Assembly (NCBI GenBank): GCA_051362555.1
Contig: CM120640.1
Coordinates: 54,600,788-54,664,787, forward strand
Length of the DNA: 64,000 nt
Reading direction: 5' to 3'
Source of the DNA: Lingula anatina
Taxonomy: Eukaryota; Animalia; Brachiopoda
The notes below the pieces were generated by a model. It saw only the letters and a program-made list of their open reading frames with translations. It did not search any database and had not been told where the DNA came from. This document shows positions 12,301-47,969 of the stretch, in pieces (within the stretch, counting starts at the first letter, position 1; every line of letters starts with the position of its first letter). Position numbers and translations under genes: made by a program.

Positions 12301-15300
12301 ATCAGCTCATTCTTCTTGATTCCTGCTGATTCCAATTAAGTGTGACGGGGGTTTAAGGGGATTTTTTTTTCAATTCTTAGTTCAACATGGTTTGTGATCG
12401 CAAGTACCTGAACAACTTGGCCCAGTCCATGTACATGGCGGGAATGTTGGTTGGAGCCATTGTTATCGGTGATTTGTCCGACAGGTAAGTGTGAACCTAC
12501 GCGTATAGTTTGAGATGCCATGTCCTCTGAAAGACATCTCGGCCTAATCTTGGTCGAATTAAATTATTCTACGCTTTTACAAAATGCATACGATTAGAAA
12601 TTATGAGTTTAAATCCATTGCGTTTTATATTTTCAGGTTTGGCAGGAAGCGTTTAATGTTCATAAGTCAGGTTTTTCAAGTGCTTTGCGGCGTTGCGCTG
12701 GCGTTCGCTCCAGAGTACATCACTTTCACCACTCTACGTTTTCTTCTTGGGGCTGCACATTCCGGAGTCTTCCTGCCAGGATTTGTGATCGGTGAGAGCA
12801 TCATATTTATAACATGTATTTGGATCCGTCGTGGAATATAGCATTATGAGAACGTAGGTAACATGTCAATGGTACAAAAATCGCTGTAAGACTGTTGACT
12901 CTTGTCGTTAAATAAAGAAGAATTTAAATCGATTCAAACAAATAAATGTTAACTGTAAATTTACTATATATTTCTGAAAAGCTTTTGTATGTTTTCTGTC
13001 TAGCGCAAGTACAACTTCTGTAGCACGTAAACGTGGTCTTATTGAGAAATTCAATTAATATCTTACAGCTATGGAGTTGATTGGAGCAAAACAAGGACGG
13101 GCTATCACTGGGATTTCATTCAATGCCTTTTTTGCTGTGGGGTTTTGCACTTTATCGTTAGCAGCATATTTCGTTCAGTATTGGTTTTGGCTTCAACTGA
13201 TCATAACTGCTCCAAGTGTTTTCTTTTTGATTTATTGTTGGTAAGTGTTACTTGCACAAATGATTTTTAAAACATTGATCATTATGTGCTCAAAACTGGC
13301 GGAAGCAGAGTTTTGGCCATTATGTTTTGGTATTATGATCAAAAATTCATGCTAAAGTCCCTCTTTAACGGTGCAATATACTTTATTTCTTGCCACAATT
13401 TTAAAATTCCGTGACAAAGTTGGCAAATGACAACTTAATGACGTCACAAAACATTTTGTTTTTCCCTACTAGGGACAGAATAATTCCAGGATCTGCAAGA
13501 TGGTTTATGCAAAACTCTCAAGTAGAGCGTTCAAAGAAAATCATACAAAAGGCGGCAAAAATGAACGGCATGCCTGATATACAAAAGCTGATAGATCAGG
13601 TATTGCAACCAGTAGCAGCCTAAAAAGACCTATAGGTATAATTGTCAAAAAAAAAAAAAAAAAAAACAAAAAAGAAAAAAAAAATCTTATCTCTCAATAA
13701 TATCTTTAAATTTCATTTTATATGCTTCAAGTTTTCAAAGCATGTCAACTGATTCAAGACACAATCCTACGAGCTGTGATATTTCAATACATGTTGGAAT
13801 GCGCGAGAACACACACCTTTTTTTAAAAAATCACATATCTGATGTCGAATTCTTATTTTAAATTTACATTCTTTTTTCAGTTAGAGCCTGACTCACATGA
13901 AAAATCGCATGTGTTCAAGATTATGAAATATCCTCGTATGAGAAATAGAGCTCTGATAATGTTCTTTAATTGGTAAGTAAGTTTGCAACTCGTCGGTTAC
14001 ATGTGTTTGTTTCTTCGCGTGAAAAAAAAATTAGCACGGGACAGGGTTTTATTTTCCTAAGAATGCAACGCGTCAATGAAAAATATTTTTCGGTGTATTC
14101 CTTATGAATTATAGTATAAATGACATATCATATCATTAAAAATCAAGTATTTAATTATTTACTTAGTTGACTACACTTTCTTAGGTTCACCACGAGCTTG
14201 GTGTTTTATGGCTTGTCCCTCGGCACGTCACAGCTTCCTGGTGGCAATGATTATTTGAACTTGTCGTTGTCTGGGTTGGTGGAATTCCCTGGATTTCTGT
14301 TTTGCATTCTGGTCATGGACCGGATAGGGCGGCGGCCATGCTTATGCATTAGCATGATATCCTGTGGGGTTGCTTGTATTGGAGCTGCCGTCATCCCTGA
14401 TACAGCAGGTGAAGTTGGAATACCCTTGCACATCTTAATATTAAAAAATTAAAAATTGCTTTCGTTTAATCAGGAGAAGTCAGTTTTGGTCCACTGTGAT
14501 TTCACAAATGTGAATGTTTGGCAAATAGTACAAAACATCTGAACTTGAAGACCAAAAGCCCCTTAACCTTAGTTTTAACGTACAATAAAATATTTTGAAT
14601 TTTGCATTAAATCCAGGATTAGACTGGCTAAGCATAACGCTGTCCATGATTGGCAAAGCCTTCTCTGGTGCATGCTTTGTCCTTGTGTACAACTACTCCG
14701 CTGAGGCATTCCCTACCGTCGTACGAAACGGAGTGATCGGAGTCTGTTCCATGATCGCCAGGGTCGGGGGAATTCTTGCACCACTTGTTAATTTGACGGT
14801 AAGATTTAAAATAGGTTAAAAAATTTCTTTAAATATTTGAACACATTTAATACATATGTAAGTTGAAAACTTGTGTAGTAGTTGGTAGATCATTTTCGTT
14901 TGGGCAGATATGGTAAGATAACTCTTTGAAGAGAAGGTAGACTCGGTACCAATTATTTTACCTTCTTTTTTAAATGTTTCTCGCTTCGTCACACCTGTAG
15001 TCAGAAAGTTCAGAAGGGGGGGGGGGCTGCAAAAGTAGACTTTTTATCCCCTTTGTTGTCCCAACTTGAGAAATGGCATAGAAGCAGTCGCAAATGTTGA
15101 TTCAAAGTGGATCCTGAACGGACAAACCGCCGGAACGCCCCTTGCTTACAGGCCTATCAGCTGTATGACTACCTCAGTGAAAATTTCGTGTATGAATGAA
15201 AAGGAGTTAAAGTCATGAAAGGAAGATATCCATAAAAATCACAATGAATATAGCACTTCCATAGACACTCTTTTGCCTACTTGAATATGTAAAGGCGTTA

Positions 15301-15638
15301 TTATTTTTAAAATAAGAGCATTCTAGAAAGGTCCATAACCATGAGGCTTACATCTTATCTTAAATGAAAACGGTATACTGTGTTATATATTTCACAGGGA
15401 TCATATACTTCCAAGGAGATTCCACCGATCGTTTTTGGTGTTACCTCCCTAGTTGCTGGTCTTCTGGCTCTTTTACTTCCTGAAACACTGGGCACACACA
15501 TGCCAGAGACACTGGAGCACGGCGAGGCATTCGGAACTCCCAAATATAACGAGTAAGTATGCAGTTTGAAACTTTCTGTTGGTTCTCAATTACGATCATA
15601 ACCAAATATGTTGTTAAATAGTCGGGTAGCTACAAGTT

Positions 15639-17946: not shown

Positions 17947-20900
17947 TTACAATCTGGTGTTCATTCTTTGCCACTTTTCCACCAATTTATTAATCACTCT
18001 AGGATTTTTCTTCAGCCATCGTGTAGCATACTTCATATATTTCTTTCCATGCGGAGTAAATTGTTTCAACTTCTTACAAAACTTTGACCTTGTGCTTGGA
18101 AAATATTTCTTAAAGATGGTTCTCACTACCTGAACAGAATCACCTGAAAAGACAGTGCACTTAAGTTTATCTATCCAATAAAGATAGCATTCACCAACTG
18201 AATTCAACCATTTGAACAGAGAGAACATTCACTGAACAATGACAATAGTCAAGCATTACAAAATATGGAAGACCAGATGTGACTTCTTTTAACAAAATAT
18301 AAAGGAGTTTAAGTCATGAAAGGAAGATACCCCTAAAAATCACAATGCACTACCATACACACTCTTTTGTAGATCAGGCATATAGGCCTACTGGAGTATA
18401 TAAAGACATTATTATTTTTCAATAAGAGCAATTTTCTTGCTCCCAACTTTCTTGCTCCCAATTTCCCCCTTTTTTAAACTAAACTAAAAGAATATGCTCA
18501 CCCTGAGGCTGAACAGGGAAGGGGGTGGTGTCAAATGTAAATGGTTGCTCAACCTGAGAGAAAACATTCTTGTTGAATGCAGTTTGGTTAAACTTTTGCC
18601 CCTGAAATTAAAAAAAAATGTTGGAAATAAACTGCTGATGTGATCACAGTTGAAACTCAGATGCAAGTATTTGGAATAGTTACTGATCCCACTTGCTGTT
18701 GCCTCTTGCCTAGTGAAATGTGATCAAGGCAGCGAAGTAGGTGCAAGGAAGAAAAAAAACAAGTAAAAAACACACTATACTATGGATCTATACCAAATAA
18801 CCATTACTTAAGTTGGAGAGAATTAACAGCTTTAAGGCTTTGATGGCGTGTCATAAAACTATCAGTGGTATCTTTAGAATACAGGCCTTTTTCACCCCTT
18901 CACCTGTTGAAGCAATACTGTGAGGTTTTAACTTTTCTTGTGCAAACACTTGTACACAAACTTAAAACTTTAAAATAATCAGAATGTTACAAGATGGTTC
19001 ACATTTGTCTTAATGCTCACATTATTTAAGTCTGAAATAAAAATAATAATAAATGCCCTTCACATTTTTGAAGAGTACCTTTGACAATGCTTCCTTCAGC
19101 TGATTGATAAACAATAGCCAGCGTGGTAGGTAATATTTCCCAACCAGTCCTCCCCACTGCTTGGCAGCATAGTCTAGGATCTGTGAAAAAAATTTTGTTA
19201 AGATAAACATTTTATCATTCTTGATTGAAGATATCTAGGGCAAAAAGTATCTGACCACTGTAACAGTTGCAAAAATGATTTATTCAATTTGAGGTGTTAA
19301 TTTTTTGTAATGCAAACTGCCTAAAAATTATTTTTTGAAAATCAAAATTCCATGCATTTTCCTACAGTAGTTTACTATCTGCCAACCAGCACATACTGTC
19401 TCAGTCCACCTTTTCTACAATATATTAAGGCTATTTAGTCAACAACTTTAAGTAAACATATAAAGACACCATTAAAGGCTCCATGTTGTGATAAAAAGAT
19501 GCCAGCCATACCTCCCCATTAGGACCCCACAGTGTAACTTGATTCCTGGCATTGTATTCGTATAATTTCCTCTCAGCCTCAGACTCGGCCATGTTGTGAG
19601 CATCAGCTATCCAGGCACCCAATAAGAAGTGCTGATCACTGGACAGTAAGGTGTCCATGTCTGTCAGCAACTCTATGAACATCCCACTAGTTGTACTGGA
19701 AATAAAGAAAACAGTATATGTTTCATGCATAACACATAATATGGCAGGTGTTCACCAAAGACACTTTCTGGAATATATGAAACAAATGTACGTAATAATC
19801 AACCATAGGATGCATCTTAAAACTTGCATTTTTGTTGATGACCCTTTTTGAAAGTCTAATTTCTAAATAATCAAAATAATGGCAACCAATCCCAACACAT
19901 ATTAAAACTACCATTAGATATAACATTTGCTTCTAATGATTTTTCTGTTAGTAGCTCTTTTCCTACGTGGTTTCATAAAATCTTACTTTCTTAAATTATA
20001 TTTCCATAGTACTATGAGAAAAATGTGCTTTCTCATATACATACTTAAATAAAGTTGCATTTTTGCTTTTATAAGCAGTAATCATGATGGTATAGTACTG
20101 CAGTCCCAGCAGCTGTAATACTTGTCTTGTCACATCTACCAAATCATATCTGAAAACAACAGGTTTTATCATCAAATATTCATACTTTATGCCAAACTGC
20201 ATAACAAATCTAATCCAAAGCATATAACTATGACATGAACAAACAAAGGAAAAATTTGACATTTCTACAAAGACAGTTGTGATGTTTTAACATTATTGCT
20301 ATTTCAGAAAAGAAAACCTACCTGAATAAATCACTACTCTTTAGTTTTGAACTGTCAGATACAAAATATTTCCATGCTGCAATCACAACTTTGGGATCAT
20401 ACCATACCTGCAATATTGCAAACAATCCCAAAACTGTCATTGTTTTTCTAAACAATGAAATCTGAAAATCTGTAAATTATTAGCTGAAATCTGTAAATTA
20501 TTAGATGACAGTTTCCTACTTAACAAGGTTTGTTGTTTGTAGCTGCATAGCAAAAAAAACGTTGATGCTAGCATAATTCTTTTTTAAAAACAAGTAATTG
20601 AATTTTTATCAAACCAAAGTTAAAAATAGGCAAATATATTTGATTAATTTTTTTTAGTTTCTGGCAATAATTCTTAATGACAGTATTAGTAACTATTGGA
20701 TACATACAAATCAATGAAGATTTGCTTTAATCTATCTACTCATGGGTGAAAGTTGTAAAAACCGAAAATTCTGAAAACATAGCTTGCAATTTCTCATTGC
20801 ATTTACGTAGACCAAAAGAAGAAAAAAAATAAAAACAATAAAACTGAAGACTGAAAATCCTGAAATCAGGCATAATCCTGAAAATTTTCACCCATGTGTA

Positions 20901-22522
20901 CTACACTATAATATTTTTGCAAAAACCATGATTTTTCATGCAGCCTTTTGTGATATTAGCTGGAAAACACTATTTTTGCAATATTTTTCTCAAATTTTCT
21001 CTCAAAGAAGATGAAAATATTTTAGCCAGACTATTAATCTATTATCAATGCCATTGTAACCAAAGGATATATAGCATGTCAATGGAATATGAAGACAACT
21101 AATTTTAAAAATAAACAAACAATGAAAATAACATGGAAATGAAGATAACATGAACATCGTGTTAAGTCCTCTGCGCCAATTCTGTATGTGTAATATACAG
21201 GATACACAGCAGAGTCTACTTACATCAGGTTTTATAGGTGGACTCAGCCTTGGTCTCTGTGTGGGAATATTGTTGTTTGAAAAGTCATCATGTCTATCTG
21301 TGCAGTTGTATATACTATGCTAACATCAGTCAACATGCACAAAGAAAAAAAAACATGCAATCAATCAATTGATGTCAAACATGCAATTCATTCTAAGTAA
21401 CAGGAGATATCAATCGAGTTTGAAAAACCTCTGTCCCGGTGAACTTACATCAGCTTTAATTTTCAGTGCTGGCCTATGTACCACGACATAACGTCCATGA
21501 TGCTTCAAATTGGTGGTACTATTGTACACACTGCGCTGGAGTTGATAGATTTTGAGATGAGAAAAGAGTAGGTAGCCTACACTTTATCCACAAAAAAGAT
21601 TCAATTACACATTCACCATATATGTTTAATAAGAAATAATAATGGTGTAAAATTATCACCACATAACTGGTACATTTACAAATCTTTCTTTGTCTCTTTC
21701 ATATTTCACTGAATGATTAAAAAAAAAAAAAAAAAAAAAATCTCAGAATGGGTGACCCTTTTTTTATGATCTAGAAAACTAATTAATGTTCACTATTTGC
21801 TTCATATCAATGTGAGATATCACATACTGTTCTAATATAACAATACAAATGTCCAGCCAGCAAAAACATATTAATATAAAATACATAATAAACAAGTACC
21901 ATAAGATATATCCAGCCAGTCTGAACATTAAGGCTGCTTATACCATATCTCCTGTCAGCATAGTTCATAAACCTACCAACAACAACAATCTGCTTTAGTA
22001 TTTTATGTTTTAGGCAGAAAAAAAAGAAAAACATATCAGTTTCAATTTCTAAAAGCACAAAAATTTTCAAACCAGAAAATGCTTCACAAGCCATTGCAAA
22101 TTATCCATATAAACAAGAAAGTTCATATCATGTACATATAATATATATAGTCTTTACAATACATACACGTATGTGTTAATAACCAAATAAAAATGTATTA
22201 TTAATCAATAAAAGTTCATTATACTTAAAATGACCCACTTCAAACTCACCATGTGATGGTGTTGACTGGTTTCTCTCTGGCTATGTTTTCATTCATAAAT
22301 TCATAGATGACATCATTCTGATTGATGCCCTCTGGAGTCAAGCCAATCCCTATCATTGAACTATTAGGGTATGCCCTGGCTTTGAATGGTCCCTGGATAA
22401 CCAACAGAGGAGGTTCATTTTCATTTATTGCACTTTAATAGCTGGTAATTAAGAAGTGTTTTTTTGTCATTAATAAGCATTTCATGAGTATATATAATTT
22501 TAAACATTTCAAGTCTATCTTA

Positions 22523-22567
<45 letters not shown>

Positions 22568-25500
22568 AGTTCAATCTGAATGACAAAGAAAAACTGCTTT
22601 AAAACATGTTATAATACCCTGTGTTGAATAGATAGAAATGTTAATTAGTACAGGAAAAGTTGCCATGCAAGGGAAAATATTTAAAATACACACAAACACA
22701 GGGACTACAAATCCATTTTTAGACTGAAGGTGTCTAACACATTTAATATACACATCGATAATGTAACAATGAATGATGCACTCCTTTGTCTCAGTGACAG
22801 TAATATCAAATATTCTTTAAAATACGTAACAGAATCTAATAGATGCTTTTATACATGCAATTGAAAGTAATACATATTATTATTATTATGTATCTGTACA
22901 AATATATGACTCAATGTACACTGAAAATAGACTAAAATACACCACTTGAGGTCACTAGACCATCAGAAATAACAGCAGACTACGAGAGGCAAGGGTAACA
23001 GTGGAAATGCTATGTACATGCACTCTTGTCAGTTATGCCAAAGAATATATATACTTTCTAGTACATCTATTATTGAACTTGACCAGTGTCTTTATTTTTA
23101 AACTACCTATGTTTTGGACAAATTTGACATGGATTTCTGTATCTGAATTCAGCCTTATTTTCCCTACTTTGTCATTATAATAATGGACACAATATTTGGA
23201 ACTTTGAAGGTATACCTGGTTTATGTCTTCAATCTGCCCCTGCATATAATTGCCTCCCCCAAAGTCATGCAACATGCACCATATAAAAGGCTGGCCATAG
23301 AAAGACTCAAACCTTTCATATTGGGGATACAACTCGGCTCGAAGATCAAGAAGTATCATGCGACCCTAAAAATGCACGCAAAATTCATGCTCAAATCAAA
23401 TTTTGAAATGAGCTAATGGGTAAATGTGAAGTACTAACTAGTATTATAACAATAAAAAGGGTTTAGTATTGGATACCTCAGTTTGAATATCATGCAGCAC
23501 TGTAAAAGAAAAAAGATTTGCAGGTGAATGTTATAGTTTTGGAATCTACACATGCTCTGCAGTTAATGCTGAGGTGGTCCTGTCATAAAAAATCCATGCA
23601 TCTTCTAATAATGAAGATTAAATGTGATGATGTGAAAAAATATACCATACTAGTATAAAGCAAATGAAAAACAGACATGCTTGTTAATCCACAAGCACTA
23701 CTATAACAGGTCTATCTGGAATGAAATAATACTTATGACATTAAGAAATACGATTCATGTCTCAATGTATGGCTGAAGAGTTTTATTAGTGGTACAGTCT
23801 ACCTTGTTGACAGACTCTGTCTGCCCCTGAAGCCCTAAAACACCACCAAAGTTATGGAGCATGCACCATATAAATGGCTGCCCTGCAAATGAGTCTAACT
23901 GTTCATACAAAGGCTGGCGCTCTGCATTCAAGTCAAGAACAATCATTCTGCCCTAGAAAGAAGTTATTCGGGGTCATAAAACCTGATACTTGTAGAAATA
24001 AATTTGTATTAACGAATTGGCTTTTAATGCCTTTGTATATCTATTTTAACATATCTTTTTCAGAAAATTGTCACTTGTATTTGAAAAATATTTCCAAGTT
24101 ATAATTTTGAATAAATAAAAATAAGATTTTAAACATTTTCAAATAAATCAGAATTATATTTAAACATAATCAAAATTACTCTCTGTCGGCTGATTAAAGG
24201 GAAAATGCACAAGAATGTCCCAAACCAACCTGTGGCACTGACGTCAGCAAAGCCTTAGCCCTGTCAGCATTCCAAAATGAACTCAAGAACAGCCAAGCCT
24301 GCATAAGCCTAGAACATATGTCAAGATGTCAAGACCAGTGGAATAAATTTAGTATTATCAGCTTTTTAAGAACAAAGCACCTAATACAGCTTAACATTTT
24401 TTCCTCACCAAATTAAAAGAGTTTGCAACAGGTTATATTGCCATGCATCTACAATAATATTTTCAGTTATTTCTTGGATACTCTCAAACTACTCAGTTCA
24501 ATGTATCACATCAATGCCAGTTACCATATTGCTTGAGGATCACCTGATTCCATTCCTTTAAACACAGCTTTTCCAGCACCAGATATATATGACAGGGCCC
24601 TGAAACAACACAGCACTGCTTACATACTTTGTTAATTATCAAGCTCTACATTTTCAAGAGTGGATTTAGATCAGAAATTTACATACCAAATGCTTTTATT
24701 TCATTGTCTACCGCTACCAAACATAGACAATTACAAAAATTTTAATACATTGTGCAAAAATGCATTAATTACATTCAGCTTTAAAGTGAGATATAAAATG
24801 TTACCCTGATGATGGAGTCATTTCATTAAAAGTGTCAGCATTGTAGATGTGGTTGGTTCCATTAAATTCTTTACTCATCTGTCAAAAAAAAAAAAAAACA
24901 ATAATATGATAAACCCTCAATAAACCTATTCCCTCAATGTGGAAGGAAATAGTTTCATATTACAGTGGTATGCAAAACACATTTTGAAACACAGAGCATA
25001 TTGATCAAACTTTTGATAATTTTAATGACCAATATTTCAGTTCAAGATGGGGCAATACTCTACAGAAAAAGAAAGTACAAACATATTTTAACAAAAAGTG
25101 AGTAAAATTGAAAACAGCAATTGTATTCCTCTTGTTCATAAAAATCCAAAACATTTCCCTCTTGCCACATAAAAAATTATTTACCTCTTCAATAAATGCT
25201 TGCCCAACTTTGACAAACATGGGATCATTAGGGTCAAGGAGATACGTGCTGTAATAAAAAATCTTCAAGCTTATTTATACCACATCTTTATAAACACATG
25301 CCTGCACAAAAAACATCAAATTCATTCATTAGAGAAATGTAGATTTTGTGACCAATTACAGATTGAAGAAGATATTTAAAAAAGACATTCCAAAAGGGCA
25401 CACATTACTGTGGCCAGCAATAACATCACAAAGCAAGCCCAGCAAAGCCCTCAAAAGGAAAAAGGATAAGCAACAACTGGTGCCATGACCTAGGCTGATA

Positions 25501-28500
25501 CCAAAAGACTAGGCTTAAATTATAGAGAGCTTAAGGAAGACCTCAAGACTGGGGCTAATTGAGGGAACTTGTAGGTGGCCTATACCCCAGTGAGGCAATG
25601 CGCATAAGTAAGCACAGTAAGTACTCAAACCACTCTGTATTCAAACCAATGTCACATTATAACAGTTATATAGTTTGACAGTGCTTTTGATCTTCACATT
25701 ACTAAAATGTATTTTTTACTTTGACATGTTACCACTCTATCTTATTTGAGACAAGTTTCAAAATGTGCCATTTATTGCCAAGTAGAAAAGTCTCACCAGC
25801 AGTATTTGGGATCTGCAAAACCTGCCCATCCACCCAGCCTCGTACAGTTGACATTAGGATACACTCTGAAATTAAAATCATCCATATCAATAACTTACAG
25901 ACATATATCTCATGATACTCTTTTTCACTGCAGGGTTTATCCCTAATGCTATATTCTAGTTGTTGACTTGTTAGGAATCAAAGTCTTATCAAGGATCAAT
26001 GGCACTGATATGTCCAAAAAACAATTAGATATTGATAAGTCTATTTGATATCAAAAGATAAATCTTTAAATAAATTATGAATCAAAATTTTAATACTTCT
26101 ACTCCACTCCAAGAATACCTTGTAAATCCTTCTGGGATATGTCCTGCAAATCCTGGCAGTACAGGCAGCATACCCAATTCTCTCATTCGTCTCAGTATCT
26201 GATGTTGTAGCTTTAGCTGGTTGTCTAACCAGGTTTGTGGTATGGGTCCACCAAACCCACGCATATTCCCCATTCTGCCCCTAATTGTAGAATATTTCAT
26301 TTGGATTAAAATCTGAATACTACCGTGTAACATGAAAATCTGACTCCCATGAAAATGTGACTCCCCAGTCAGATTTTCATTATGAAAATGTGACTCCCCA
26401 GTCAGATTTTCATAATGAAAATCTGACTCCCCCCATGAAAATTTGACTCCCCCTCCACAAAACTTCATACATCTTATTTTATTTTGAGTATGTGACTGTG
26501 ATCTTGTAGTATGTGAAATGGAGGATACATTGGCGCTTTTTTGTAATTTGCAGGTGAAAATTTTCATGAAAAAATAAGAAAATTAAAAATGTCCACTTAA
26601 TCGCCTATTGTCTCCCCTATGAAAAAGTTATTTAATATTTGATGATCATTTCAACACCTTTTCTTTTAGGATACTTATGAAAAATATATTGGAAATATTT
26701 AAAGGTTTGATGATAAAATAGTGAAAACATGAAAAAGAAATCATGAAAATCTTTATTTTTACACCCATGAGATTTGGACTCCCATTGAGAAAAGGACCTA
26801 TTTTATATTCAGTCACCATACCACTGTTTTCCACATAGTTTGCATAGAGATGGATATTTTGTCATTATTTGAAAGTTTGATGATGAAAATTTTGGTCAAT
26901 ATTTTTAAAACAAGTATCCATCTTTATTCTTGTAGGTTTTGCACTCCCATGTCAAAACACTACAATTTCATTATGTGCACATTTTTAATTTTCTCATTTT
27001 TTCATTAAAATTTTCACTGCAAACTACAAAAAATGTGCCAATGTATCAACCATTTTACATGCTACAAGATCACAGTCATATACTCAAAATAAAATAAGAT
27101 TTATGAAGTTTTGTGGCGGGGGAGTCAAATTTTCATGGTAGAGTCAGATTTTCATTATGTGCACATTTTTAATTTTCTCATTTTTTCATTAAAATTTTCA
27201 CTGCAAACTACAAAAAATGTACCAATGTATCAACCATTTTACATAATACAAGATCACAGCCATATACTCAAAATAAAATAAGTTTTATGAAGTTTTGTGG
27301 AGGGGGAGTCAAATTTTCATGGGGAAGTCAGATTTTCATTATGTGCTCATTTTTAATTTTCTTATTTGTTTATTAAAATTCTCACTGCAAACTACAAAAA
27401 AAAATGTGCCAATGTATCAACCATTTTACATACTACAAGATCACAGTCATATACTAAACTAATTAGAGATTAATGAATGTTTTTTTGTAGGGGAGTCAAA
27501 TTTTCATAGGGGAACCACATTTTCATTATGTGCACATTTTTAATTTTTCTTTTTTTTTATGAAAATTTTCACCTGCAAACTACAAAAAAGTGCCAATGTA
27601 TCATCCATTATGCATACTACAAAATCATAGTCATTTACTCAAATGAAATGAGATTAATGAATGTTTTTTTTTGGGGGGGAGTCAAAATTTCATGGGGTGA
27701 GTCAGATTTTCATTATGAAAATCTGACTGGGGAGTCACATTTTCATAATGAAAATCTGACTGGGGAGTCACATTTTAGGGGAGTCAGATTTTCATGGTAC
27801 ACCTGTCCGGTAACTTTTCATTACCTGTTACTATGAGCGGAAAGGCCATCCTGTCCATCATACAAAAATAAAGCAATGTAAAATCAACAATGCATATTAG
27901 TTCTACTGGAAAAACTATTGCTATGTAATTTTAGCACACAATTTGCAAATCTTGTACACTTACCAAGCAAGAAAAGCAGGACCAGCAAAGTGCTCATCCA
28001 AATCCTTTTGTGAGAGACCCAGTTTGAGATAAACCTTAAATGATAAAAAATTAATCGTGTTTTTAACAAAGCAACTTGGAAAAAATCAAACAACAAAAAA
28101 TTTATTTTTCAATCATAACTTCCTGTTACCTTCTGCCATATTGCCTCCTGTCCAGTGAAAGCCAGGGGTAGGTTTATTCCATTCAGGGCCATCCAGTCAA
28201 TCTCCCGCTCCCACCTTGTCCAGTTCCACCACACAAAGGAGTAGCTTGATGTACACACATTCTGATAGTAGCGGAACCTGAGAGCAAAAAATAAGTTTTA
28301 AAAATAGACAAAAAAAAAAAAAAAACAAAACAAAACAAAAAACAAATAAATAAATAAACACCCCATGAAACAAACTTTGACTTACTGTAGCACTGATCAA
28401 CTCTACAATGATCGGTTCTAAATATAAAAAGGAATTTATTACATAAGTACTGACTAACTGCACAATCTCTATATAATGTGCTTTAAAAGGTTATGTATAC

Positions 28501-30489
28501 TATAGCAAAATTAGCACATCTTGCCTGTAGAACATTTAAAAAGTAAAAATACCTATCATTGGATGTTATTTTTATACCAGGATCAGGAACTGGTCTAAAT
28601 CCTCTCCAGGTTTTCTGGTCTCCACCCCAGGAGAAGTGAAAGCCCTGGTAGTGTTTGAGATAATACTGTAAACCCCAGGCAGCAGCAACTCCTGTTGTAC
28701 CAGTGACATGGATGACATTCTGCACTGTTTGCAGCTAAAGAACATATATCTTGAAAGTTAATTATTTTCATAGATGATTGTGAACATTTATGTACGAGTA
28801 ATATTGGGTGGATAACAATGCACCATACCGCAATTTCAATTTCGCAAAACCTGTTAAACTATACTGTACTGCAACTACATTCTACTTGATACAAATACAT
28901 AATGTTGTCTGGAATACACAGATGTTTTGACTCAGTACCTATCATATCCATATGATGCTCAATACAAAAATCATTATGATCTTTAAATGCATAGCTGGAA
29001 TAGAGCTACATGAATCAGATTCAGCTAGCTTAACACATTAAAGCTAGCAATGGCATTTTCATTGAATGCAACAAGCTGCTTGTGCATCTGCTATGCACAT
29101 TATTTTAAACCAGGACCAAATTCAGTTCAATGAGTGCCACTAAAATGCAAGTGTCTTGAATCAATGGAACATGGCTGTACATGTATATTTACCAGTAGCT
29201 AAGAGTAATATATATGTAAAGGTAGATAAGAAATAGTTGTAGTTAACATCATATACTGATACAATTACAGTGCACATAAAGCACGCAGAAATTAGGAAGA
29301 CAAAAGAGAAGTACTAAAATGTATGAAATTTTAATTTGTAATTTCCATTTTAGGTATACACATAAGTTAAATGTAATATACTGAGTACAAGTAAAACAGT
29401 GATAGGAATACAGTGTACCTTAAAAGAGTCCCTATTTGGGACTCCTAACTCAGAATCTACTTTGAACTGAAAGAATTTGGCATTATCACCCAGTGCCCTT
29501 GTAGCTAGCGCCTTCACAGCAGCCTCCTGGATGTCTGGTGGTACCTTGGTGTGTAGGTGGTCCAACGTTGGAAACTCAACAGATGCAGTAACATGCCTGT
29601 CTCCAGGAGCAAACAAAAGAAACAAGATGACCTGAAAAACAATTTATGAGAATTATGTGCACACTGTAAGCCTGACTCTTCAGGATGCAGCATTACTTGT
29701 TTCATGTAAAGCAGCTTGCACATTCATGCATTAGTTCTCTGGTCCTACTAAATAGAAAAACCATGCATGAAAAATCCTTGAATACCTCAAGGTACATGCT
29801 AGTATGTATTCTGCTCCATGAAAACCACAAGAAAACCTCCCAAAAGTCAATGTAATTGGCAAATTTACCAAATATTTAGATAATTTAGACTTAATTTCAT
29901 TGCTAACACCCAATGCAACAGTACATATCAGAGACCGTATAGGAGTGCAAACACAAGAAATTCCATGCTTACACTGCATGTAGACTACATGGAGAAGATG
30001 ACAAATTAATGGAGTGCTGGTATAGTGCGGTGTAGGTATCATGCAGTAGTGTTTAAAGGGATAATAACTCTTCGTATGAGATTTATATTTCACAATAAAA
30101 ACATTGTGAATAACTCAGAGAAATGTGATATATATCTGTTTTACCACAAAAACGGCAGTTATAGCTATTATTCTGACATCTGAGCTGGTCTTCAGACCAC
30201 ATGACCTCCACTGAAGGCTGTACTCTGTCATAATCTCTTAAGAGATTTTAACAAAAAACCAAACTTTTCAGAAAAAAACCAGGGACTTACTTTGAATGTA
30301 AAAATGGATTCATTAACCATTGGTAAGTATGGGAAAAATGCTCCTTACTCCAGGAAAATTCATTTTTTGGCTAAAACAAAGAGTTATTATCCCTTTAATC
30401 TTAGATCCATAAATGAAAAATCCATAAATGTGTGTGTATGTGCATGTGTGTGTATGTTTTTAAAAAGAATATAAGTAGTATACATGTGA

Positions 30490-30557
<68 letters not shown>

Positions 30558-30885
30558 AAGAGAAAGTGATGTCCTAAGGCACGTAATTTAGTAGAACGTT
30601 AACAGGTTTAAATTGCACAGTGCATATTTGCTAATAAATAAATAAATAAATAAATGAATGAATGAATAAAATAAAATAAAATACTGACTGTCATTGTAAT
30701 TTTTGATCATCAAACCGATATTTCTTTTAAATTTTGGAGATTAAAATTTCAACCAAATTGAGTTTATGCTGTTGGACCCTTTGTGCCATAGAAATAGAAA
30801 GACTGTGTACTTCTATGGTTTGTACCAAAGAATTATAGCTCTTTTCCGCTCTTTTTGTACTCACCGCACACCGTGTTGACATCAT
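17947..30885 (-). CDS. NAGLU: Alpha-N-acetylglucosaminidase (GH89), multi-exon, with two duplicated exon pairs
   Basis: Exons (minus): 30865-30885 (MMSTRCA), 29419-29631, 28553-28734, 28130-28277 ([16 protein letters not shown]...[11 protein letters not shown]), 27964-28034 (GPAFLAW), 26119-26280 (GRMGNM...PVLPGFAGH), 25797-25865, 25185-25248, 24805-24878 (YNADTFNEM, catalytic Glu), 24525-24599, 24230-24308 (WLMQAWLF), [23803-23952 or 23216-23365], 22250-22392 ([10 protein letters not shown], second catalytic Glu), 21900-21972, [21449-21535 or 21224-21319], 20322-20407, 20045-20149 (YDLVDVTRQ), 19512-19695 ([14 protein letters not shown]), 19079-19180 ([10 protein letters not shown]), 18502-18601, 17947-18143. 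The N-terminus is hydrophobic and signal-peptide-like. Confidence 0.97.
20741..20896. mobile_element. Small hAT-like MITE in NAGLU intron
   Basis: Terminal inverted repeat catgggtgaaa...tttcacccatg with internal ctgaaaa repeats; no clear TSD. Confidence 0.55.
21224..21319 (-). CDS. NAGLU: NAGLU alternative exon B2 (96 nt)
   Basis: tag|[32 protein letters not shown]|gtaagt; phase 0-0. Confidence 0.88.
21449..21535 (-). CDS. NAGLU: NAGLU alternative exon B1 (87 nt)
   Basis: cag|[29 protein letters not shown]|gtaagt; phase 0-0. Confidence 0.88.
23216..23365 (-). CDS. NAGLU: NAGLU alternative exon A2 (150 nt)
   Basis: ag|[50 protein letters not shown]|gtatac; phase 0-0. Confidence 0.92.
23803..23952 (-). 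CDS. NAGLU: NAGLU alternative exon A1 (150 nt)
   Basis: ag|[50 protein letters not shown]|gtagac; phase 0-0. Confidence 0.93.
26323..27810. mobile_element. ~1.5-kb non-autonomous TIR element built from nested tandem repeats
   Basis: Termini ta|ccg..tgta.catgaaaatctgactccc and its inverse ...cgg|ta. Palindromic ~30-bp units (atgaaaatgtgactccccagtcagattttcat) lie at both ends; a ~180-bp unit occurs about 4 times at ~26970-27715 and once inverted at ~26400-26590. Confidence 0.75.
30490..30553. repeat. Compound (GT)n(GA)n microsatellite
   Basis: Direct reading. Confidence 0.95.
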
Positions 30886-45877: not shown

Positions 45878-46592
45878 GTAAGTTGCTTATGATTATTAAA
45901 GTATTTATGCTTTAAATCAGCACTGATTGATCATCAATACAGAAAGCAGATCAATAATTTATCGCAATAATTCGAGGGTTCAGTACGATGAGCGCAGTTT
46001 CTGCCATCAAGTTTTCTCTTTTTCTAAGCAGCAGGGCTACTACTGCTAGGCAGGTGTTGGAGAGTCTCTGTGAGAGTGGACGTGATGGGTGCTTTATGAC
46101 TTAACTCTTCCAGTGGATGACCGATTATTGGAAGTAACATTGCCTGCGAACGGGGCCGTGTGAACTACAAATAAAGGTGTAATCACAAAATTTCTACATT
46201 GCTCTAGCAGGGTCCACGCATGATTTTATTTGTAATTTGTACATTTGATCCTTGAAATTTTACACACAGAAAGCTACATATCTGGGTATTTATAAACCAT
46301 TAATTTTTTTATCAATGGCACTAAGATCAAAAGTTATTCAAGTTTTAGTGACATATTGTTGGTCACCTTTTTCAGATACCACTTTCAAAAAGTTGGCCCA
46401 CTTAATTTTCACCCCATAAAATGCCATAGGAACTTGAAATTTGTCACACAATAAGTAAAGGAGCTAGGTAGAGTACACAGTTTAAATTTTAATACTAAGA
46501 TTTTTCCAAAGCAGAGTAATGTCAGTAATGTTCATGTGAAGTAGGCAAAGTTATAGAATTTAGGGCCACAGATGAGACCATATGGGAAATAC

Positions 46593-47569
46593 CACGCTCG
46601 GCTGTCACCTTGATTGGATAGTAAACGGTTGTCGTAAAATCGCTAAAAGATATTAAAACCCGGTGCATAAACTTGAAAACCACCTAGGACAACCTTAGAC
46701 TGCCACATTAATCCAATACAATGCAAAAATAAACTATAACAAGTGGTTAAAGCCTTCAAACCGAATGTCGTAAAGTCCCCATATACCTCCAAAGAGACAA
46801 TAAAATATAGTAAGCTTCTGAAACAAGATAAATCCAGTTCCAACATAATAATCGAAATAAAATACTGCCGGGCATCGGAGCGGCCTAAAACTTGGCACGC
46901 TTACCGCTAATACTGCAGGCTACATCATCCCGTCGCTCGTTTGTAAATTCCGTGCATGGCATACGCACAATCAAACCGTATATCCAAATTGCACCTCTGA
47001 TGTTTGAATTAGTCCTCTACGCTATTCAAATCAAGAAGTGACGTAACCGCAGAGGTCACCGTACACCGGGCTTACGCAAAATAAGCCATGCCATTGGACA
47101 ATGCGACCTCTGCGGTTACGTCATTTCCTGAATTGGATTGTAGAGGGGACTAATTCAAACATCAGAGATGGAATTTGGATATACGGTTTGATTGTGCGTA
47201 TGCCATGCACGGAATTTACAAACGAGCGACGGGATGATGTAGCCTGCAGTATTAGCGGTAAGCGTGCCAAGTTTTAGGCCGCTCCGATGCCCGGCAGTAT
47301 TTTATTTCGATTATTATGTTGGAACTGGATTTATCTTGTTTCAGAAGCTTACTATATTTTATTGTCTCTATGGAGGTATATGGGGACTTTACGACATTCG
47401 GTTTGAAGGCTTTAACCACTTGTTATAGTTTATTTTTGCATTGTATTGGATTAATGTGGCAGTCTAAGGTTGTCCTAGGTGGTTTTCAAGTTTATGCACC
47501 GGGTTTTAATATCTTTTAGCGATTTTACGACAACCGTTTACTATCCAATCAAGGTGACAGCCGAGCGTG
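46593..47569. mobile_element. Foldback DNA transposon: 465-bp inverted arms, 47-bp spacer, 8-bp TSD
   Basis: Arms 46593-47057 and 47105-47569 are near-perfect reverse complements; GGAAATAC is duplicated at 46585-46592 and 47570-47577; termini CAC...GTG. Confidence 0.92.
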
Positions 47570-47969
47570 GGAAATACAAATTGATACAATTATCTTTCAA
47601 AGCTTATGCAATAAAACTTGACCTGCTAACCCTAGCTGAATGGGGAACAAGAGGGGGAGGGGTAACAAAATTTACGAAATAAATCTTTTTCCAAACTTTC
47701 TCAAAATCTGACATGCTGGTGAAAAATTTAAGTTCTTCTTTAATACACATTGTCTCTTGCCACCCTTTGCCTAAAATTTTTACTTTCAGCCTTTCTACAA
47801 AAATTTCAGAGGTTAAAAAAAAGAGGGGGGGCTCATGCTTATATTTTCTCTTTTTATATATTCATATGCTCTATATATCAAGAAGAGTAAGTACCTTGAT
47901 AACATTGCATCTGTTTATGCTGTAAATTGCAGTGACTAAGTTTCATAAGGAATTATATAAATGTTGCAG

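Follow-up and report, generated by a model that had tools for sequence, protein, structure and literature searches.

Tandem copies of exon 12 spliced one at a time in the NAGLU gene of Lingula anatina, and exon swapping in NAGLU proteins of other invertebrates

Introduction

Does the brachiopod Lingula anatina splice two homologous versions of the same exon, one at a time, into a single glycosidase, and what might the exchange do to the enzyme? The question is raised by a 64,000-nt stretch of genomic DNA (assembly GCA_051362555.1, contig CM120640.1, positions 54,600,788 to 54,664,787; hereinafter referred to as the window), in which a first-pass annotation, made from the sequence alone, had noted two similar 150-nt exons in tandem and proposed that they exclude each other. 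Homologous mutually exclusive exons (MXEs) are a known but uncommon splice class. The gene concerned, NAGLU, encodes a lysosomal glycosidase, the human form of which underlies Sanfilippo B disease.

Results

The NAGLU locus and its database models

Mapping of RefSeq isoforms onto the window identified the locus as L. anatina NAGLU, encoding an alpha-N-acetylglucosaminidase of glycoside hydrolase family 89 (GH89), on the minus strand. The five RefSeq (Gnomon) isoforms X1 to X5 (XP_013404165.1, XP_013404242.1, XP_013404322.1, XP_013404392.1, and XP_013404469.1), which form one protein cluster, mapped exactly to 17950..30885 (-). Each isoform contains 21 coding exons, to which two alternative copies are added in the gene, and the products are 794-797 amino acids long. 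The PF05089 barrel, PF12971, PF12972, and the GH89 fold were present, and the catalytic glutamates aligned to human E316 and E446 were encoded by the common exons 9 and 13. From this homology, the Lingula protein is probably an exo-alpha-N-acetylglucosaminidase.

Isoforms X2 and X4 carry one version of exon 12 (hereafter A1), X1, X3, and X5 the other (A2), and none of the five carries both; A2 was 100% identical to a stretch of isoform X3. A second exchange was found in exon 15, where X5 takes copy B1 and X1-X4 take copy B2. The alternative use of A1 and A2 is already known to automatic annotation; the RefSeq isoforms represent the same locus, as automatic models without a functional reading. 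Profiles built without Lingula for exons 2-20 detected a second copy of exon 12, one of exon 15, and none of any other exon, all other matches having E values of 0.016 or worse.

The window differed from all RefSeq isoforms at residue 755 (C against F) and from X1, X2, and X5 at residues 25 and 83 (sites 18075-18078, 28725, and 29578-29580, minus strand), so it likely represents another assembly or haplotype. A duplicated 5' haplotype may be present in the RefSeq scaffold. Elsewhere in the window, NAGLU intron 5 contained tandem repeats of ~184 nt with inverted copies (26325-27802), likely a non-autonomous transposon, and a near-perfect palindrome of ~980 nt (46592-47570; 94.6% self-match on the opposite strand) is likely a foldback or MITE-type element. 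Several collinear matches of 70-84% between 140-2970 and 13058-15550, ~12.5 kb apart, were consistent with a tandem gene duplicate.

Sequence and divergence of the two exon 12 copies

In the direction of transcription, the common exon 11 (24230..24308, -), encoding the residue aligned to human W352, is followed by A1 (23803..23952, -), a 437-nt GT-AG intron (23366..23802, -), A2 (23216..23365, -), and the common exon 13 (22249..22392, -), encoding the Glu that corresponds by alignment to catalytic E446 of the human enzyme. The positions and equal length of the copies proposed in the first-pass annotation held, each exon being 150 nt long, stop-free, in phase 0, and bounded by an AG acceptor and a GT donor. 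Its protein reading was likewise reproduced, including HNFGG in A1 and HDFGG in A2, LDLN in A1 and LDLR in A2, and 32 of 50 residues shared. At the nucleotide level, 94 of 150 positions were identical (33, 40, and 21 of 50 at the first, second, and third codon positions), and different codons were used at 15 of the 29 shared degenerate residues. Each copy matched PF05089 positions 246-294 (E 3.6e-16 and 1e-15) and aligned to chain positions 353-401 of human NAGLU (4xwh). The pair thus consists of adjacent homologous exons of one gene with the same phase and similar length, as homologous MXEs are defined.

An old duplication with purifying selection on both copies had been proposed, and the divergence between the copies agreed with it. 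The Nei-Gojobori estimates were pN 0.26 and pS 0.79; the latter lies above the saturation limit, so that dN/dS was far below 1 without a finite estimate. Similarity ended at the exon edges, the flanking introns scoring as shuffles did (181 and 143 of 200 shuffles as high). Saturated pS, low pN, and introns without leftover similarity together point to an old duplication and to purifying selection on A1 and A2 alike.

The age of the duplication relative to other lineages was less clearly marked. In a tree of 45 rows and 50 columns, the free topology separated A1 from A2, and 0% of bootstrap trees joined them; on the same short 50-column data, a tree constrained to keep the two as neighbors was better by 6.8 log units (p-AU 0.70), so that the tree spoke neither for nor against a joint origin. 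The distance between the copies (32/50) was about that to unrelated homologues (means 30.7 and 30.1 of 50). Two residues that are rare among 117 homologous segments, Q42 (1/117) and Q44 (2/117), were common to A1 and A2, a hint at a duplication within the brachiopod line.

Splicing evidence from RNA reads

Of nine RNA runs assigned to the species by label, eight were used, at 6-30% of each run, giving 320 reads in total. A junction was listed for a run when supported by three reads from two starts, at low read depth, and joins to exon 13 were taken from loose read ends that agree in sequence with the first bases of that exon. Run labels (run X1 and so on) are distinct from the isoform names above.

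All four junctions between the two copies and the two common flanking exons were present. Exon 11 was joined to A2 in 59 reads (18 in run X1, 9 in X2, 0 in X4, 4 in X7, 16 in X3, 0 in X5, 9 in X8, and 3 in X9) and to A1 in 7 (2 in X8 and 5 in X9, with 0 in X3 and X5 and no entry in the remaining four runs). The A2 donor was joined to exon 13 by 45 loose ends in five runs (X1 15, X7 3, X3 9, X8 11, X9 7) and the A1 donor by 18 in three runs (X7 4, X8 4, X9 10). Runs X4 and X5 had no listed junction of either copy. Neither an A1-A2 join nor a skip from exon 11 to exon 13 was listed in the eight runs, a frequency of a few percent being able to hide below the three-read threshold. The junction check that the first-pass annotation had put forward for mutual exclusion thus came out in its favor, each copy joining exons 11 and 13 with no listed A1-A2 join, in agreement with the RefSeq isoforms. 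Nor is A2 an odd, minor copy: it was the major spliced form in the listed junctions, and both copies hold residues absent from the 117 homologues.

The balance between the copies differed strongly between studies, with 0 A1 versus 67 A2 junction reads in study P1 and 25 versus 37 in study P3 (Fisher p 5e-10, or 3e-4 with unlisted A1 reads set at their ceiling; mates are not independent). Tissue, stage, or genotype may account for this difference; P3 reads carry other alleles, and the tissues are coded. In runs X2 and X3 of P1, depth over A1 ran on into the introns, as in unspliced RNA, and in run X1 reads covered the 5' half of A1 although no join was listed there.

Reads differed from the window at eight positions in the two exons, six of them synonymous (2/3 in A1, 4/5 in A2; binomial p 0.002-0.02), again in line with purifying selection on both copies. 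The non-synonymous differences were T45I in A1 and Y40F in A2, the latter inside the rewritten loop. Run X9 also differed from the window at 23658-23784, with 10 listed sites and one insertion in ~130 intronic bases, which suggests a strongly diverged population or a cryptic species under the same label. Taken with the isoforms, the reads leave us with high confidence that A1 and A2 are a real homologous mutually exclusive exon pair.

Position of exon 12 in the enzyme and comparison with homologues

AlphaFold models of the A2 and A1 isoforms, built on 54-row alignments, both had a mean pLDDT of 92, and the A2 model matched 4xwh with an E value of 1.2e-67 and an rmsd of 1.4. In both models, the exon 12 region comprised a strand (E389-394), short helices, a second strand (E413-419), a loop, and the start of a helix (431-442), with lower confidence in the loop after the second strand (84 and 80 in the A2 and A1 models, respectively).

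By alignment, exon 12 corresponds to human residues 376-425. The functional-site residues of human NAGLU include W268, E316, W352, L383, L407, F410, E446, and H512, according to PMC12166291. A1 and A2 agree at the residues aligned to L383, L407, and F410. Neighbors of these pocket residues, at human-equivalent positions 384, 387-388, 409, and 413-416, were among the 18 sites at which the copies differ; closeness to the pocket was judged by alignment to the residue list. Another report counts N409, N413, and H414 in a broader active-site region and terms them catalytic (PMC13207710); we did not adopt that wording.

For comparison with homologues, 117 ungapped segments were taken from 119 matches. 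The first-pass annotation had read the change from HNFGG to HDFGG as a break of a conserved Asn. At this position (34), 104 segments have N, 12 have D, and 1 has S, the D-carriers including oysters, Mya, and Tribolium, so Asp is a tolerated natural variant, and the reading as a unique or disabling change was rejected. Five of five additional short matches also had HDFGG, with loops that were mollusc-like or of other kinds; the loop of A2 occurred in none. The LDLN/LDLR position was variable (F 43, A 21, Q 16, and Y 11 of the 117). Residues absent from all 117 segments were R12 and A23 in A1 and R9, G38, and Y40 in A2; A23 sits where every homologue has Y or F.

How exclusive splicing may be enforced

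Both exons are multiples of 3 in phase 0, so double inclusion keeps the frame, and neither frame nor nonsense-mediated decay (NMD) can give exclusivity. Steric hindrance or a distant branch point was not indicated, the intron between the copies being 437 nt long with AGs at distances of 24 and 47 nt upstream of the A2 acceptor. A clash between U2- and U12-type sites was not indicated either, since the donors are ordinary GT donors and none fits the U12 consensus.

A search for intronic RNA pairing gave a weak candidate duplex (23997-23972 with 23740-23687; span 23687..23997, -), which would place A1 in a loop and mask the stretch ahead of the A1 acceptor. Its energy was -23.8 kcal/mol, with 3 of 150 shuffles as low, and it was the best of nine region pairs tried. 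A second, separate duplex flanks A2 and shares no element with that of A1; the two use different middle-intron elements, so that in this one genome they lend no support to a docking-site model. The introns were not linked by any long inverted repeat. The flanks of A1 and A2 had the two lowest z-scores among 20 exons (-1.7 and -1.5; 12 shuffles each), and those of the exon 15 pair did not stand out. RNA pairing is a weak lead as an aid to exclusivity, and regulated splice-site choice, possibly helped by such pairing, most likely lies behind it.

Exon 15 and exchanges in other species

The second pair of the locus consists of B1 (21449..21535, -; 87 nt, phase 0), used in isoform X5 and supported by a profile match (E 3e-13) and its splice sites, and B2 (21224..21319, -; 96 nt, phase 0), used in isoforms X1-X4 and placed by alignment, with an intron of ~128 nt between them. 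The B2 region aligns to human H512 and to the W685 loop of the Clostridium perfringens enzyme CpGH89. That loop (680-686), whose aligned counterpart in Lingula is the last part of exon 15 when the CpGH89 numbering offset is taken from E601 in the structure entry title, has been suggested to set the preference for GlcNAc-alpha1,4-Gal (PMC8225759).

Database isoforms of 24 invertebrate species, hand-picked for multi-member clusters and so biased to positives, were compared as proteins alone and tallied by hand. Isoform differences confined to one block that matched a Lingula NAGLU exon were found in 22 of the 24. The swapped block was exon 15 in 19 species sets, exon 7 in 7, exon 11 in 4, exon 14 in 1, and exon 12 in 1, the last being Lingula itself, alone among the 24. 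The exon 15 swap is probably the more widespread event. Such swaps were absent from the Aplysia and Branchiostoma hybrid isoforms. An apparent exon 12 swap in Biomphalaria was rejected, the isoform differing across exons 11-21 too and looking like a merged paralogue.

The exon 11 block was exchanged in Tribolium, Nilaparvata, and two venerid clams (P0234/P0147, P0232/P0073, P0213/P0089, and P0084/P0216), suggesting either convergence or an old shared event. Isoforms of Glandiceps (P0228/P0102) differed across exons 14 and 15 together, possibly as a two-exon cassette. Some mollusc models contain two exon 15 blocks together, and strict exclusion is not implied there.

Among the swapped exons, exon 7 holds the counterpart of W268, exon 11 that of W352, exon 12 those of L383/L407/F410, and exon 15 the H512 region, and none holds a catalytic Glu. 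With 11 of 19 internal exons holding a listed residue, the probability that all four would do so by chance was 0.085; the swapped exon 14 of Glandiceps holds no listed site residue.

Discussion

The explanation we favor, at a probability of roughly 0.65, is that NAGLU of L. anatina carries tandem copies of exon 12 that are spliced singly, and that the resulting enzymes, with a fold and GlcNAc pocket predicted to be common to both, likely have different kinetics or substrate preference. Inclusion of A1 or A2 one at a time would give two 797-residue isoforms. The exon would supply two barrel strands with their loops, and the conserved equivalents of L383, L407, and F410 would keep both forms exo-alpha-GlcNAcases. 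At human-equivalent 384, 387-388, 409, and 413-416, the changes would give the two forms a different charge and shape around the expected place of the remaining glycan, so that the difference between A1 and A2 likely tunes substrate preference via residues at the pocket rim, judging from the aligned sequences. Together with the exon 15 pair, up to four pocket variants could be made, of which RefSeq lists three.

The two copies might instead be mutually exclusive and functionally nearly equivalent, their 18 differences reflecting drift at tolerant positions and each copy being kept because it is spliced often enough that breakage costs. An A1-A2 distance no greater than that to ordinary homologues, the natural occurrence of D34 in 12 of 117 homologues, and an exon 12 swap in only one of 24 species sets all speak for near-equivalence. 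Against it, both copies carry residues absent from the 117 homologues at constrained positions (A23, G38, and Y40), the A1:A2 ratio differs strongly between studies, and NAGLU exons are swapped in many lineages; on balance we consider near-equivalence rather unlikely. Less probable still is that A1 and A2 are independent cassette exons, with double inclusion below the listing threshold, or that A1 is a decaying copy of low use. Neither frame, NMD, steric hindrance, nor U12 sites presented a barrier, A1 depth runs into introns in runs X2 and X3, and two exon 15 copies occur together in some mollusc models, as independent cassettes would allow; yet in each of the 18 listed reads from the A1 donor the partner is exon 13 and never A2, and in run X9 the 10 reads from the A1 donor to exon 13 stand against at most ~2 unlisted ones. 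Decay of A1 fits poorly with a stop-free exon that keeps every invariant residue and has two of three read differences synonymous. An assembly artefact, with two haplotypes or paralogue pieces set in tandem, could draw on the haplotype mixing around the locus seen at residues 25, 83, and 755, but synonymous saturation is far above allelic divergence, the same exons 11 and 13 are joined to both copies in reads, and X9 reads cover the intron between A1 and A2, making such an artefact extremely improbable.

Copies spliced singly place Lingula NAGLU among tandem duplicated exon substitutions, or homologous MXEs, in which adjacent homologous exons are likewise spliced one at a time. In the surveys of such exons (PMC9741552 and PMC7954323), varied residues lie near functional sites and the event recurs independently within a gene family, as in NAGLU. 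Their material comes from human, fly, worm, and other model species, with the emphasis on ion channels and muscle genes; NAGLU gave no match in their main texts and in 1 and 6 supplement files, respectively. Another parallel is coq-2 of nematodes, annelids, and molluscs, where the mutually exclusive homologous exons 6a and 6e remodel the substrate pocket of an enzyme, with two fixed residue changes common across phyla and a proven substrate switch (PMC7434440 and PMC8659336). In contrast to coq-2, the exon 12 swap was seen in one species, other lineages swap other exons, and the Lingula case is known from sequence and reads. Human NAGLU (4xwh) and CpGH89 have the fold, the two catalytic Glu motifs, and L383, L407, and F410 of the pocket in common with the Lingula enzyme; they are single-sequence enzymes, whereas Lingula has two pocket segments in alternative versions within one gene. 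We found no published account of NAGLU exon swapping, though supplements not seen and subscription papers may list one, and its repeated occurrence across invertebrates appears to be undescribed.

Taken alone, the A1/A2 pair is of modest interest: the RefSeq models already include it, and junction reads now support it. The main interest lies in the recurrence of exon swaps in NAGLU across phyla. A1 and A2 amount to a swap experiment made by nature in an enzyme that is otherwise the same, so that the question of what sets GH89 substrate preference can be put to a direct test. Should DNA and reads confirm the recurrence across phyla, it would add a housekeeping hydrolase to the short list of genes in which MXEs evolve repeatedly. 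A bolder and rather doubtful extension would make NAGLU a hotspot at which bilaterians have convergently duplicated exons, with the substrate pocket as the target, each lineage having a combinatorial panel of alpha-GlcNAcases with tissue-switched glycan specificities: exons 12 and 15 in brachiopods, 7 and 15 in oysters, zebra mussel, and snail, 11 and 15 in venerid clams, 11 in insects, and 14 with 15 in the acorn worm. Were this true, no other swap would extend as far into the catalytic barrel as exon 12 of Lingula, and these natural variants would map the loops that set GH89 specificity.
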